Assembly (NCBI GenBank): GCA_944332435.1
Contig: CALVJW010000005.1
Location: 1-57,636 of the forward strand
DNA length: 57,636 nucleotides
Direction of reading: 5' to 3'
Source: an uncultured Bacilli bacterium
GTDB taxonomy: Bacteria; Bacillota_I; Bacilli_A; RF39; UBA660
How positions within the stretch are numbered: position 1 is the stretch's first letter; each line of letters opens with the position of its first letter. This document shows, in pieces, positions 50,880 through 57,636 of the stretch. Below the pieces are notes generated by a model. That model did no database searches and was not told where the DNA came from. It was given only the letters and a program-made list of their open reading frames with translations. Made by a program: the position numbers and the translations under genes.

Positions 50880-51635
50880 ATGAATAATGAATTAGAAGCA
50901 AAGCAATTAGTATTTCGGTATCCACCATTAGAAGAGGGGAGTACAGGAAATGAGGTTATTATCTTACAAGAAAAATTGAAATTATTAGGTGATTATGATG
51001 CTAGTATTACTGGTAGTTTTGGACCTCGTACTACAGAATCAGTAAAAAGATTTCAGCAAGATCAAAGGTTAGAACCAACAGGAGTAGTTGGGAAAGATAC
51101 TTGGGAAGCATTATTTCGTCTAACGAATAATATGTTGCCAGCTAGTAAAATACAGACAAAACCAACACTTCGCCTTGGCAGTAGTGGGCCATATGTTATC
51201 GAACTACAGAGAATTTTAACGGATTTATTGTATTATAAGGGACCAATTAATGGAATTTTTGATTCTAGTGTACAAACTGCGGTAAAGTCATTTCAAAGTA
51301 TCAACCATTTAACTGCTGATGGAATTGTTGGAAGAGATACTTGGAGTGCACTAGATACGCTTTATTCACCACTGGCAATTTGTGAAGGAGAAACAGGAGA
51401 GGAAAATACGATTTCTTACACTGTTGTAGCAGGGGATAGTTTATGGAGTATTGCCAAAAAATTTGGTACAACCGTTGATGAAATCAAACGATTGAATAAT
51501 TTAACAAATGACACCATTTTTATCGGTCAAGTATTAAAAATTCCGGTAAAGGGAGAGTCTATCCCGCCACAAGATATATCTACTTATACTGTTGTAGCAG
51601 GGGATACGCTTTTTATGGGGAATAATGAGTATTAA
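50880..51635 (+). CDS. PG-binding x2 plus LysM protein, interrupted in its second LysM repeat by an integrated element
   Basis: Two PG_binding_1 domains and a full LysM ([16 protein letters not shown]). The second LysM breaks off after YTVVAGDTL. Confidence 0.9.
   Translation: [251 protein letters not shown]
51586..51617 (+). repeat. attL of the serine-recombinase element
   Basis: Host arm ...gttgtagca, core GG (51600-51601), element arm ggatacgctttttatg. Confidence 0.85.
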
Positions 51636-51660
51636 ATTAAATTTTATATATAAAACATTG

Positions 51661-51696
51661 CTTAAGTTTTCCCAACTTAAGTTTTTTTGGTATAAT
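51661..51696 (+). terminator. Element-borne terminator overlapping the cargo promoter
   Basis: cttaagtt-ttccc-aacttaag plus T run, then TGgTATAAT. Confidence 0.65.
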
Positions 51697-51724
51697 TTAA
51701 TTATCAAGAACTTTTGAAAGGAGT

Positions 51725-52138
51725 ATGATTTTTATGGAAGTAAAATTAAGTGAAGTAATTGATGCCCTATACTTTACAAACGATGAAATTGAATACTATT
51801 ATAATCCAACTAATGGAGAAATATTTATGTCAAATATTGGAGATTATGAAAACTTAAATGAAGATGAATTGGATGAACTATTTGAAAAATCTATTATGTT
51901 ACCCACTAGATATGACATTAATGAATATGAAATGATGGAAGATTTTGTAGAAACTATTGAAGATATTAGACTTCAAAATCAACTATATATTTCTCTAAAT
52001 GGTAGTGGTGCATTTAGAAGGTTTAAAGATACTTGCATTAATTCTGATATTATTAACGATTGGTATAAATTTAGAGATGAAAAATATAAAGAAATTGCTA
52101 TAAATTGGTGCAAAGAGAATAATATCAAATTTGAATAG
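51725..52138 (+). CDS. UPF0158-family protein
   Basis: LP...INEYEMMEDF...G.GAFRRFKD...W....A..WC. Confidence 0.82.
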   Translation: MIFMEVKLSEVIDALYFTNDEIEYYYNPTNGEIFMSNIGDYENLNEDELDELFEKSIMLPTRYDINEYEMMEDFVETIEDIRLQNQLYISLNGSGAFRRFKDTCINSDIINDWYKFRDEKYKEIAINWCKENNIKFE

Positions 52139-52148
52139 GAGATGAATA

Positions 52149-55670: not shown

Positions 55671-55698
55671 TATAAAAAATTAACAATAAAAATATAAC

Positions 55699-55727
55699 TT
55701 GACTCCCATATTTTAAAGAGGTATCAT
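55699..55727 (+). promoter_or_regulatory. sigma-A-type promoter for the recombinase operon
   Basis: TTGACT-17-TATCAT. Confidence 0.55.
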
Positions 55728-55872
55728 CCATGCAAAAGGAGATGATGCTTATGAAAAATATAATGGAGGAATATGAAGTTAAGTAATATTTTTGAGTATG
55801 TAATATGCATACCAAATAATATTACTAAAATTAAAGTTAATGCCATAGGTTTAAATGGAGGTAATAAACTCT

Positions 55873-56052
55873 ATGGTTGAATACAAAGTTAATTTAAAGT
55901 TTAAAGAAAATGGAAAATCTTTAAACGAAACAATAACTGAAGTATTAAAAATTGAATTACAAAAAAAGATTAATAAGACTTGTAATATTTTAAATTTAGA
56001 GCTACCATTCAATCATACTCATTATTTCCAAAAGGAAAGGAGAAATAATTAA
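55873..56052 (+). CDS. Small protein coupled to the recombinase (candidate directionality factor or regulator)
   Basis: GGAGG SD. TAATG overlap with the recombinase start. Confidence 0.55.
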   Translation: MVEYKVNLKFKENGKSLNETITEVLKIELQKKINKTCNILNLELPFNHTHYFQKERRNN

Positions 56053-57617
56053 TGATTGGGAATAGTAGTTTTAAAGTAGGATTATATATAAGATTATCAA
56101 GAGATGATGGAAATATAGAATCTGATAGTGTTATTAGTCAAAGAAGTTTACTAAAACAATATGTTAAAGAAAATAATTACATAGTAGTAGATGAATATGT
56201 TGATGATGGATTTTCAGGAACTAATTTTGATAGACCAGCATTCAAAAAAATGATGAAAGATATTGAACTTGGTAAAATCAATATGATTATTACCAAAGAC
56301 ATGTCTAGATTAGGTAGAGATTATATTGGTACAGGTGAATTAATAGAAAAGTATTTTCCAAATAAAAATGTTAGGTATATTGCTATTAATGATGGTATAG
56401 ACACATTTATAGATAATACTAATAATGACATAGCACCTTTTAAAGCTATAATGAATGATATGTATGCTAAAGATATTTCTAAAAAAGTTAAAACCAGTTT
56501 ACATTCTAGAATGAAAGAAGGATTATATGTATCTGGTAAATGTCCTTTTGGTTATATGAAAGATCCAACAAATAAAAATCATTTAGTAGCGAATGTTGAA
56601 CAAGCAGATACCGTTAAATTGATATTTGATTTAGCACTAAAAGGTAATACTTACCATTATATAGCACAATATCTTACAGAAAGAAAAATTAAAACTCCAG
56701 CATCTTATTACAATTATGTGTGGAATACAAAGTGCATAAATACAAATTGTATAAGCCAAGAATATGGTGTATGGGTTGATACTACTGTAAAAGCAATACT
56801 TACTAATCAGATATATGTAGGAGATACAGTTCAAGGTAAAACTAAAAAGATTAATTATAAACTTAAAAAGACGGTTAAAAATAACCCCAATGACTATATT
56901 ATAGTTGAGAATACCCATGAGGCAATTATTGATAGAGATAAATTTAATTATGTACAAACTTTACTACCTAAAAATGTTAAAAGACCTGATAAAAAAAGAT
57001 TTTATTTATTAGATGGACTTTTATATTGTGGAGATTGTAAACACAGAATAACAATTAGATACCAAAATAAAACAGGTAGAAGTTATACCACTTGTGATTA
57101 TTACAGAACATATTCTAAATATCATGTTTGCACAACTCATACAAACAATTATGAAAATCTAGAAAGGATTATTTTAGATAATATAAAAGGAGTTTGCAAA
57201 AAGTATTTAGATAGAAATAAGGTAAAAGAATGTATTGGTAATATAAGCCCCATAGATAATACTTTAAAAATAAAAAAGCAAATAGAAAGTTTAGAATTTG
57301 CAAATAATAAATTAACTGAAACTTTGGATAAAAATTATATGAATATGTTAAAGGGTATTATTGATGAAGAACAATATATAAGAGTTAGTGAAAATCTAAA
57401 GCATGAAATAGAAAATAATAAATCAAGTATTGATAATCTTAAAAATGAAAATAGTGAATCCAATAAAATAGATAATAAAATGATAGAAAAATATATTGAT
57501 GAATTTTTATCATTAGAAAATCCAACTAGGGAATTGATAATAAATTTGGTTGAAAAAATTTATATCTATCAGGACAAAACGATAGATATTATATTTACAT
57601 TTAAAAATGTTACATAA
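56052..57617 (+). CDS. Large serine recombinase (TndX/CisA/Ccr-like architecture)
   Basis: YIRLSRDD catalytic Ser, DDGFSG, KDMSRLGRD, PFGY, Zn ribbon CGDC and coiled coil. Confidence 0.95.
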   Translation: MIGNSSFKVGLYIRLSRDDGNIESDSVISQRSLLKQYVKENNYIVVDEYVDDGFSGTNFDRPAFKKMMKDIELGKINMIITKDMSRLGRDYIGTGELIEKYFPNKNVRYIAINDGIDTFIDNTNNDIAPFKAIMNDMYAKDISKKVKTSLHSRMKEGLYVSGKCPFGYMKDPTNKNHLVANVEQADTVKLIFDLALKGNTYHYIAQYLTERKIKTPASYYNYVWNTKCINTNCISQEYGVWVDTTVKAILTNQIYVGDTVQGKTKKINYKLKKTVKNNPNDYIIVENTHEAIIDRDKFNYVQTLLPKNVKRPDKKRFYLLDGLLYCGDCKHRITIRYQNKTGRSYTTCDYYRTYSKYHVCTTHTNNYENLERIILDNIKGVCKKYLDRNKVKECIGNISPIDNTLKIKKQIESLEFANNKLTETLDKNYMNMLKGIIDEEQYIRVSENLKHEIENNKSSIDNLKNENSESNKIDNKMIEKYIDEFLSLENPTRELIINLVEKIYIYQDKTIDIIFTFKNVT

Positions 57618-57636
57618 AAAATGTATCTGGTGATAC
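57613..57636 (+). repeat. attR of the serine-recombinase element
   Basis: Element arm cataaaaaatgtatct, core GG (57629-57630), host arm tgatac. Confidence 0.82.

Follow-up and report, generated by a model that had tools for sequence, protein, structure and literature searches.

We describe here a 6029-bp element that interrupts the gene of a LysM-containing protein in an uncultured Bacilli bacterium (RF39; UBA660). The window, i.e. the whole analysed stretch of 57,636 nucleotides, is contig CALVJW010000005.1 (C5) of the source genome G000, a metagenome bin of 0.94 Mb in 25 contigs that is 66% complete and has a G+C content of about 28-30%. The element extends from a GG dinucleotide at 51600-51601 to a second GG at 57629-57630 and probably represents, in integrated form, a family of compact mobile elements that occurs widely and uses the DNA encoding the start of the LysM domain as its attachment site. 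The anatomy of the element, its target specificity, the position of the crossover, the empty site and the distribution of the family can all be read directly from assembled sequences, as laid out below.

Junctions of the element and the crossover site

The left junction reads ...gttgtagca GG ggatacgctttttatg, with the GG at 51600-51601, and the right junction reads cataaaaaatgtatct GG tgatac, with the GG at 57629-57630, the contig ending six bases further on, at 57636. Both junction sequences are present in the window exactly as quoted in the initial annotation, and recomputation of the arm symmetry confirmed the inverted repeat reported there: when the ends of the element are joined into attP, the arms are symmetric at 13 of 16 positions around the GG. 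Both junctions are far beyond chance. The host frame runs ...YTVVAGDT and is then closed by the element-coded residues LFMGNNEY*; the interrupted codon is that of the glycine in the LysM "GD" motif, the GG being its first two bases. The features that define the insertion are as follows.

50880..51601, plus strand: 5' part of the host gene, encoding two PG_binding_1 stretches, a complete first LysM repeat (LysM1) and the first codons of the second (LysM2; ...YTVVAG) up to the crossover GG, within an open reading frame (ORF) at 50880..51635
51600..51629, plus strand: attL, the crossover GG (51600-51601) and the P' arm of the element, which also supplies the tail and the stop codon of the host protein (to 51635)
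55855..56052, plus strand: small ORF of 65 aa, candidate recombination directionality factor, its stop codon overlapping the recombinase start by one base
56052..57617, plus strand: large serine recombinase of 521 aa (Pfam Resolvase, 4.3e-23; Recombinase, 1.6e-23; Zn_ribbon_recom, 3.2e-09; PHROG 95 integrase, 5.7e-104)
57609..57630, plus strand: attR, the P arm, which holds the stop codon of the recombinase gene, and the crossover GG (57629-57630)
57631..57636, plus strand: first six bases of the right host arm, TGATAC, completing G-D-T at the contig end

All ORFs between the junctions are on the plus strand. The recombinase combines the resolvase catalytic, recombinase and zinc-ribbon domains that define the large serine recombinases, and the reconstructed attP shows dyad symmetry around a shared, non-palindromic central dinucleotide. 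The initial identification of an integrated large-serine-recombinase element is, hence, borne out both by the three diagnostic Pfam domains and by the architecture of the att sites.

The same architecture recurs, with little change, in other genomes. We collected 20 non-duplicate complete attL/attR pairs, with spans from 1583 to 7900 bp. The P arm follows the consensus GTTACATAAAAAnTGTATCtGG (28 distinct sites) and the P' arm the consensus GGnGATACaaTTTTTATGGGGAATAATGAG (86 distinct sites), both recurring in a nearly unchanged form, and the symmetry of the reconstructed attP arms ranges from 12 to 15 of 16 positions across the 20 pairs. In 8 of these pairs, attL and attR carry different bases after the GG, and in 13 they carry different bases before it; since the flanking bases vary in this manner, the GG is the only core that is common to all 20 pairs, in line with its assignment by the initial annotation as the crossover dinucleotide on which the attP symmetry is centred. 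The attB consensus consists of a left part, tTATAcnGTnaAAanaGG, and a right part, GGnGATAcntTaTggantATtGC, and encodes Y-T-V-x-x-G-D-T/S-L-W/Y-x-I-A; six further intact LysM starts of this kind are found in G000.

LysM-coding DNA as the target of a family of elements

A search with the recombinase among 121 genomes of the same family gave a match at E<=1e-40 in 70 of them. The closest tier comprises 15 places in 14 other genomes, with 82-90% identity, and the next tier lies at 58% or lower. Fifteen loci (the window, one in G004, a genome of the same genus, and thirteen regions that were fetched) were inspected, and the right arm CATAAAAAnTGTATCnGG was present in 14 of them. Beyond the arm, all 13 right junctions that could be read further give GD(T/S)L(W/Y)xIA…, in many cases with another one to five LysM repeats behind it, and the 3' gene fragments remain open in all 13. 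In contrast to this close tier, no LysM junction was seen in the stretch of sequence read after the recombinase stop codon at fifteen loci where the recombinase is at most 58% identical (L029-L043).

When all distinct right junctions are taken together, 27 of 28 read GD(T/S/N)..., the remaining one being a tandem junction. Each of ten right-side fragments matches the Pfam LysM family, the match running from profile position 6 at residue 1 in five (L013, L047, L049, L052 and, with a looser fit, the first repeat of others). On the left side, the P'-arm pattern occurs in 87 stretches of species-representative genomes; among the 80 of these that were listed, 76 junctions directly follow Y/F-(T/I/V)-(V/I)-x-x, that is, the start of a LysM repeat, and the other four comprise two chance matches in unrelated genes, one junction that is not LysM-like and one that resembles a decayed tandem junction. 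The earlier proposal that the element targets the GDT motif of a LysM repeat is thus upheld from both sides, with GD(T/S) as the motif in the LysM-coding DNA.

The P'-arm matches come from bins assigned to uncultured Bacilli, Erysipelotrichaceae, Tenericutes/Mollicutes and Firmicutes from animal and human guts and, for a small number of short contigs, from bins of other phyla. The genes hit are diverse: the upstream host parts of at least 60 aa (n=56) contain Amidase_3 in 36 cases, PG_binding_1 in 5 and GH25 (Glyco_hydro_25) in 3, and recombinases 79-98% identical to that of the window are found in Amidase_3, PG_binding_1, GH25 and N-terminal-LysM genes. In 13 of the 76 insertions, the interrupted LysM lies within the first 40 codons, so that almost the whole protein is severed; some insertions strip an amidase of every LysM repeat, as in locus L044, where six LysM repeats lie beyond the junction.

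The host gene, its missing 3' part and the empty site

The host ORF of the window matches PG_binding_1 (Pfam, 2.6e-38, two stretches) and LysM (1.3e-23, residues 180-222). The 3' rest of this gene was not found on the other G000 contigs, either by tblastn or with exact strings, the genome being 66% complete. Because the window ends with its contig and no other contig of G000 holds the 3' rest, it is solely from relatives and from public contigs of the same species that the in-frame continuation of the LysM repeat can be read.

Among the relatives, G004 has both junctions within one genome. It carries an orthologue that is 88% identical, in which LysM1 and LysM2 are complete and a related element of 4.6 kb sits within the third repeat (LysM3), at the same motif; past attR, the frame continues as LysM from profile position 6 to 43. 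In four further genomes (G001, G002, G003 and G005), the orthologues of the host gene are uninterrupted and contain 3-4 LysM repeats each. Within one genus, the insertion is, accordingly, found in a different LysM repeat or is absent from the orthologue.

The window stretch also occurs in 20 public runs from 12 studies of chicken, bird and gut metagenomes, all in the form of assembled contigs, and four of these runs were examined. In run X15, a contig of 4626 nt with a depth of 30.2 covers positions 49500-51608 with 7 differences over 2109 nt; past 51608, it continues in sequence whose alignment falls within LysM1, up to a loose end reading …NLKIGQILRI. The depth in this run is zero on 51676-52219, a kind of gap that was used only jointly with a contig bridging the site. 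The X15 contig is an empty-site allele of the same species from a chicken-gut run. In run X1, a contig of 877 nt covers 57404-57636 and extends 644 nt further, and because this extension includes 97 nt that resemble the LysM-coding stretch 51415-51511, LysM-coding DNA lies past the end of the window.

Of the checks proposed with the initial annotation, inspection of the DNA beyond 57636 gave LysM-coding DNA in the X1 contig, and the comparison with empty alleles gave X15 and the four uninterrupted orthologues. The coding sequence is interrupted, and precise excision of the element would rebuild an in-frame LysM repeat, as claimed at the outset and as indicated by the G004 junctions, the empty site in X15 and the ten right-side fragments; for the window itself, we infer the same.

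The joint of 57630 to 51602 that is expected for an excised circle was absent from the contigs of the four runs, although assembled contigs are uninformative on this point either way. A degenerate attP pattern occurred in no stretch of a viral contig collection, in none of the fetched loci and in one stretch (L144) of a metagenome contig collection. The latter was considered as a free circle of the present element and rejected; it adjoins an ORF that does not encode a recombinase and looks like a tandem accretion.

A candidate directionality factor

The recombinase and the small ORF in front of it are the only genes common across the elements. The small ORF has 47 tblastn matches in the fetched loci, and an alignment of 29 sequences shows a mean column identity of 78%; no credible relative was found in Pfam or the PDB. 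When recombinase residues 300-521 were modelled in complex with the small ORF, the model scored 0.76, as compared to 0.00 for the best of three controls; the mark used for such scores is reached by 58 of 80 solved complexes and by 2 of 110 mismatched pairs, these counts being approximate here as our own alignments were used. The contacts agreed between runs by at least 71%, with a predicted local distance difference test (pLDDT) value of at least 60 for the partner, and involve recombinase residues 365-398 and 478-521, at the junction of the zinc ribbon and the coiled coil. According to the consulted part of Shin et al. (2025), unrelated directionality factors are all predicted to bind at this very junction (PMC12286644). 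The model, without showing binding, lends support to an interaction of the small ORF product with the recombinase, and this product probably acts as the directionality factor.

Non-coding structures upstream of the recombinase operon

Three conserved or promoter-like features precede the two-gene operon.

55525..55618, plus strand: four helices forming a structured non-coding motif of about 95 nt in front of the small-ORF/recombinase operon; another 43 distinct copies occur in the fetched loci
55699..55727, plus strand: sigma-70-like promoter TTGACT-17-TATCAT, matching at 10 of 12 positions; such sites are no more numerous in the region than in shuffled sequences
55782..55826, plus strand: conserved hairpin AGTAATATT…AATATTACT (inner stem GTATG/CATAC), immediately ahead of the small ORF

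The structured motif is backed by covariation: 96.9% of the cells of the alignment are paired, vs 31-46% when the partners are slid, and both sides change in 12 of 25 pairs. An outer helix, AGGAT/ATCCT, was dropped from the model as compensating changes were absent. The region 50800-57636 has no match in Rfam at E<=1. Copies of the motif also occur near recombinases that are only 36-38% identical, as well as in one genome of another family (G033), and one copy in G000 itself (C4:19479-19621, minus strand) lies on the strand opposite another recombinase gene.

The promoter-like block is aligned in about half of the related elements. In the hairpin, variants of the inner stem retain pairing, e.g. 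GGTATAT/ATATACC in L118. A reading of the hairpin as a sigma-E-like promoter (AATATT-17-CATACC) was abandoned, given that the variants conserve pairing and not sequence and that the spacing exceeds the consensus by one base. In many elements, a strong ribosome-binding site stands before the hairpin, together with a short open frame; other elements have instead, upstream, a small ORF resembling ribbon-helix-helix proteins.

Variable cargo and recombinase-less units

The part of the window element to the left of these structures encodes four proteins.

51725..52138, plus strand: UPF0158 family protein of 137 aa (Pfam PF03682, 1.2e-12), with a homologue in the G005 element
52149..53705, plus strand: SWIM zinc finger protein of 518 aa (Pfam PF04434, 2.3e-05)
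53721..54698, plus strand: RhuM-family protein, a candidate single-gene defence protein (Pfam PF13310, 1.3e-108; PADLOC PDC-S05, 2.3e-151)
54703..55428, plus strand: 241-aa protein weakly resembling MA-clan metallopeptidases, with matches below the cut-offs (Peptidase_MA_2, 26.0 bits vs 32.4; Peptidase_M9, 23.8 vs 26)

PADLOC gave no match for the UPF0158, peptidase-like, small-ORF and recombinase proteins, and for the SWIM protein only a stray DpdE row (E = 0.0045). In PHROGs, among the proteins of the window element, the integrase alone is recognised, plus a weak match of RhuM.

Related elements carry other genes. The elements of the window and of G005 have cargo in common and recombinases that are 90% identical, and reside in different host genes, and the L078 element, the recombinase of which is 98.5% identical to that of the window, carries Shedu SduA and occupies yet another host gene. 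Further cargo includes an OLD-like ATPase with a DpnII restriction-modification set (L050), AIPR (L096), HNH proteins (L013, with a blastp homologue in L104), an ABC (ATP-binding cassette) exporter with an AraC regulator (L066), an MMPL protein, Lgt and a radical-SAM protein; nine further cargo proteins had no match in PADLOC. Judged by family assignments, the cargo is highly variable and often defence-like (RhuM, Shedu, DpnII, OLD, AIPR). Two elements carry extra aminoacyl-tRNA synthetases, one with a class II core and an HGTP anticodon domain and one of the class I Trp/Tyr type (L060, 3917-5191, and L096, 2931-3842).

Units of about 1.6 kb that lack a recombinase gene and are flanked by the same att arms were seen at L048 (G112:C14, 11510-13122) and L124 (1964-3546), with further recombinase-less units at L013 (4440-5670, minus strand) and L144. 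At L048, the unit stands in tandem with a full element (4.8 kb + 1.6 kb), the two being separated by an attP-like junction; at L124, it is alone in a LysM gene; and in G004, such a unit is fused behind the recombinase. These arrangements suggest the accretion of hitch-hiking units.

A mobile element or a developmental switch?

The scenario that we favor can be outlined as follows. The recombinase would exchange strands at the GG of the glycine codon in a LysM-start attB, and the insertion truncates a wall-binding or wall-hydrolysing host protein after ...GDT and about 8 element-coded residues. If the element were excised precisely, the LysM repeat would again be complete and in frame. The core of the element consists of the structured non-coding motif, the small ORF as the probable directionality factor and the recombinase; the remainder is exchangeable cargo, often anti-phage, represented here by RhuM/PDC-S05 together with the SWIM, UPF0158 and peptidase-like proteins. 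The target motif is present in many Bacillota and in several copies per genome, which is why the same element is found in different genes and genera. We therefore envisage an active, horizontally spreading integrative element, with developmental or otherwise regulated excision being a minority possibility.

Certain observations weigh against this scenario. In 12 of the 20 pairs, attL and attR agree in the base after the GG, which is the third base of the glycine codon; this base varies between pairs, and a strict 2-bp core does not account for the agreement. Translational coupling ties the small ORF to the recombinase, an awkward arrangement for a directionality factor, which ought to be missing while integration takes place. 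A transfer function (relaxase, oriT or capsid) was not recognised in the element, whose movement between cells, like the activity of its recombinase, is presumed. The window itself lacks the 3' host arm, and frame restoration in this very genome would have to follow the example of its relatives. Finally, no excised circle and no attB or attP junction reads were seen, the public data being assembled contigs.

The initial annotation had gone further and proposed a skin-like element, which would be kept in the germ line, as are skin, SPbeta and gin, and excised in the sporulating mother cell by the recombinase and its directionality factor, rebuilding a spore-wall LysM protein. There is something to be said for this proposal: the insertion lies within a coding sequence whose frame would be restored by excision, the 3' fragments stay open in all 13 right junctions that were read, and truncation at fewer than 40 codons, as in the 13 insertions mentioned above, would be costly unless reversible. 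The element is also compact, free of phage genes and equipped with a serine recombinase and a small partner protein, like gin of B. cereus as described in the consulted part of the report (PMC5595907). The Spo0A_C, SpoIVA and SpoIIID families are each present in all five genomes searched, G000 included, and this small-genome lineage is, therefore, plausibly spore-forming; furthermore, the gene next to the host gene encodes SpoIID-like and PG_binding_1 domains (Pfam). Nevertheless, the proposal fits poorly with the rest of the evidence. Instead of residing at one defined gene, the same recombinase clade is found in several genes and repeats, mostly in those of Amidase_3 wall hydrolases and in different genera; the insertion is polymorphic within the species, as X15 demonstrates, and both the repeat that is hit and the cargo differ between genomes of the same genus; the cargo is of the type found in mobile defence islands, and recombinase-less units accrete in tandem; the promoter-like site, where aligned, is sigma-70-like. 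Neither Pfam nor NCBIfam nor Atlas gave a sporulation name to the host gene or its neighbour, Atlas naming them 'peptidoglycan-binding' only, and the NCBIfam SleB model scored 102 bits against a cut-off of 236.5, so that the label 'sleC' given earlier to the neighbour found no confirmation. Altogether, excision tied to sporulation in the manner of skin appears quite unlikely.

Regulation could also be vegetative, in the form of an 'active lysogeny' switch, in which excision and re-integration would toggle the wall anchoring of autolysins and other wall-binding proteins, with the structured motif as a sensor. The coupling of a directionality-factor-like ORF to the recombinase, the presence upstream of a covariation-supported motif and a second conserved hairpin, and the removal of every LysM repeat from certain amidases, as at L044, would all make sense under such a scheme. 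We consider it very unlikely, however, considering that the available contigs hold no evidence of excision, that the copy of the motif opposite a different recombinase gene on contig C4 is a poor fit for a simple leader, and that the varied cargo and the large number of target genes speak for selfish spread and not for host regulation. A broader combination, in which the LysM motif serves as a general landing pad and regulated excision behind the previously undescribed structured RNA and the hairpin restores wall anchoring at set times, such as sporulation or stress, seems unlikely as well; if true, it would constitute a reversible genetic switch at the level of a protein domain, in gut Bacilli with genomes of 1-1.4 Mb that bear spore genes. 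As for an artefact of assembly or binning, or a chance resemblance of the junctions, one could point to the contig ending six bases past the right GG, to the propensity of LysM repeats to confuse assemblers and to the incompleteness of the G000 bin. This explanation is hardly credible in view of the same junction architecture within single contigs of many independent assemblies, including the 20 complete pairs, and of independent Logan contigs from four runs of four studies that cover the element, one of them bridging attR.

Relation to known systems and implications

The spreading integrative element that we favor has partial counterparts among the characterised systems. Skin and SPbeta are prophages or former prophages of 48-134 kb that reside at a single locus; the LysM elements, unlike them, measure 1.6-7.9 kb, carry no phage genes and occupy many loci. 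What the two groups share, as far as the consulted parts of the respective papers go, is a large serine recombinase with a small partner and excision that restores, or in the LysM elements would restore, a reading frame, in spsM by SprA/SprB of SPbeta and in sigK by SpoIVCA of skin (PMC4191935; PMC5499854). The gin element of B. cereus ATCC 10987, inserted in gerE, encodes the serine recombinase GirC and the 6.5 kDa protein GirX, and its excision at T3-T5 of sporulation, which rebuilds the gene, has been demonstrated, according to the part of the report that was consulted (PMC5595907). Judged by analogy, gin is the closest functional analogue: like the window element, it is compact, free of phage genes and inserted in a coding sequence, has a serine recombinase with a small partner (a candidate one in our case), and its excision rebuilds a gene, as that of the window element would. 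Unlike gin, which interrupts one sporulation regulator gene, the LysM family occurs in many wall genes, is polymorphic and carries varied cargo.

At the level of sequence, the recombinase is far from the characterised enzymes. Its best PDB match is the catalytic domain of TnpX (4.9e-29), with SprA (YokA) among the nearest (E = 1.7e-18); the best identity to any recombinase from a phage record is 34.5%, and the scores against the NCBIfam Ccr and XisF models fall far below the cut-offs. A multi-targeting clade of TndX/TnpX-like recombinases, in which one recombinase cluster serves several unrelated target genes, was described by Durrant et al. in 2022, the operational definition in the consulted part of the paper being more than three unrelated target gene clusters (PMC10083194). 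The recombinases of the LysM family resemble this clade in occurring in more than three kinds of target genes, as counted by domain content, and would pass as multi-targeting under that definition. They differ from the clade in lacking the DUF4368 domain (Pfam) and in using, instead of a short AT-rich target, some 40 nt that encode the conserved motif of a single protein domain. The word 'LysM' is absent from the main text of that paper so far as it was consulted, and the supplementary target tables may list Pfam families (PMC10083194). A literature search that combined LysM with large serine recombinase, integrase or attB returned, as judged by titles and the beginnings of abstracts, no work treating LysM-coding DNA as a target.

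The recombinase-less units invite a comparison with the cis-mobilizable elements (CIMEs) of the ICESt1/ICESt3 type, which accrete site-specifically next to integrative elements and depend on tyrosine integrases and tRNA or fda-type sites. Likewise, the units described here have the same att sites as the full element and stand in tandem with it (L048) or alone (L124); the enzyme is, however, a serine recombinase, and the site is the LysM motif.

Provided that the proposed scenario is correct, this would be a serine integrase with a natural target that is the coding motif of a ubiquitous protein domain and not one particular gene, a choice that would open numerous insertion sites in each genome and a broad range of hosts to it. 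The insertions would explain the truncated 'LysM...FMGNNE*' proteins and some contig breaks in gut metagenome bins. In uncultured gut Bacilli with small genomes, the family would be a compact carrier of defence genes (RhuM, Shedu, DpnII restriction-modification, OLD, AIPR), and its recombinase, attP, attB consensus and candidate directionality factor are natural parts for tests and, possibly, for genome engineering in Bacillota. In addition, a non-coding motif that is supported by covariation and linked to recombinase genes is brought to light.

Other recombinase genes and a split sporulation gene

Genes of large serine recombinases are abundant in these genomes of 1-1.5 Mb, with 7 to 9 matches (E<=1e-40) in each of G088, G105 and G114, and G000 contains two more recombinases, at C4:20139-21665 (58% identity) and C9:32237-33757 (38%). 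In another genome, G103, the ATPase domain of SpoIVA is split at profile position 122 over two contig ends (G103:C16:1-363 and G103:C45:5428-5775), which could reflect a plain assembly break or another element in a sporulation gene.

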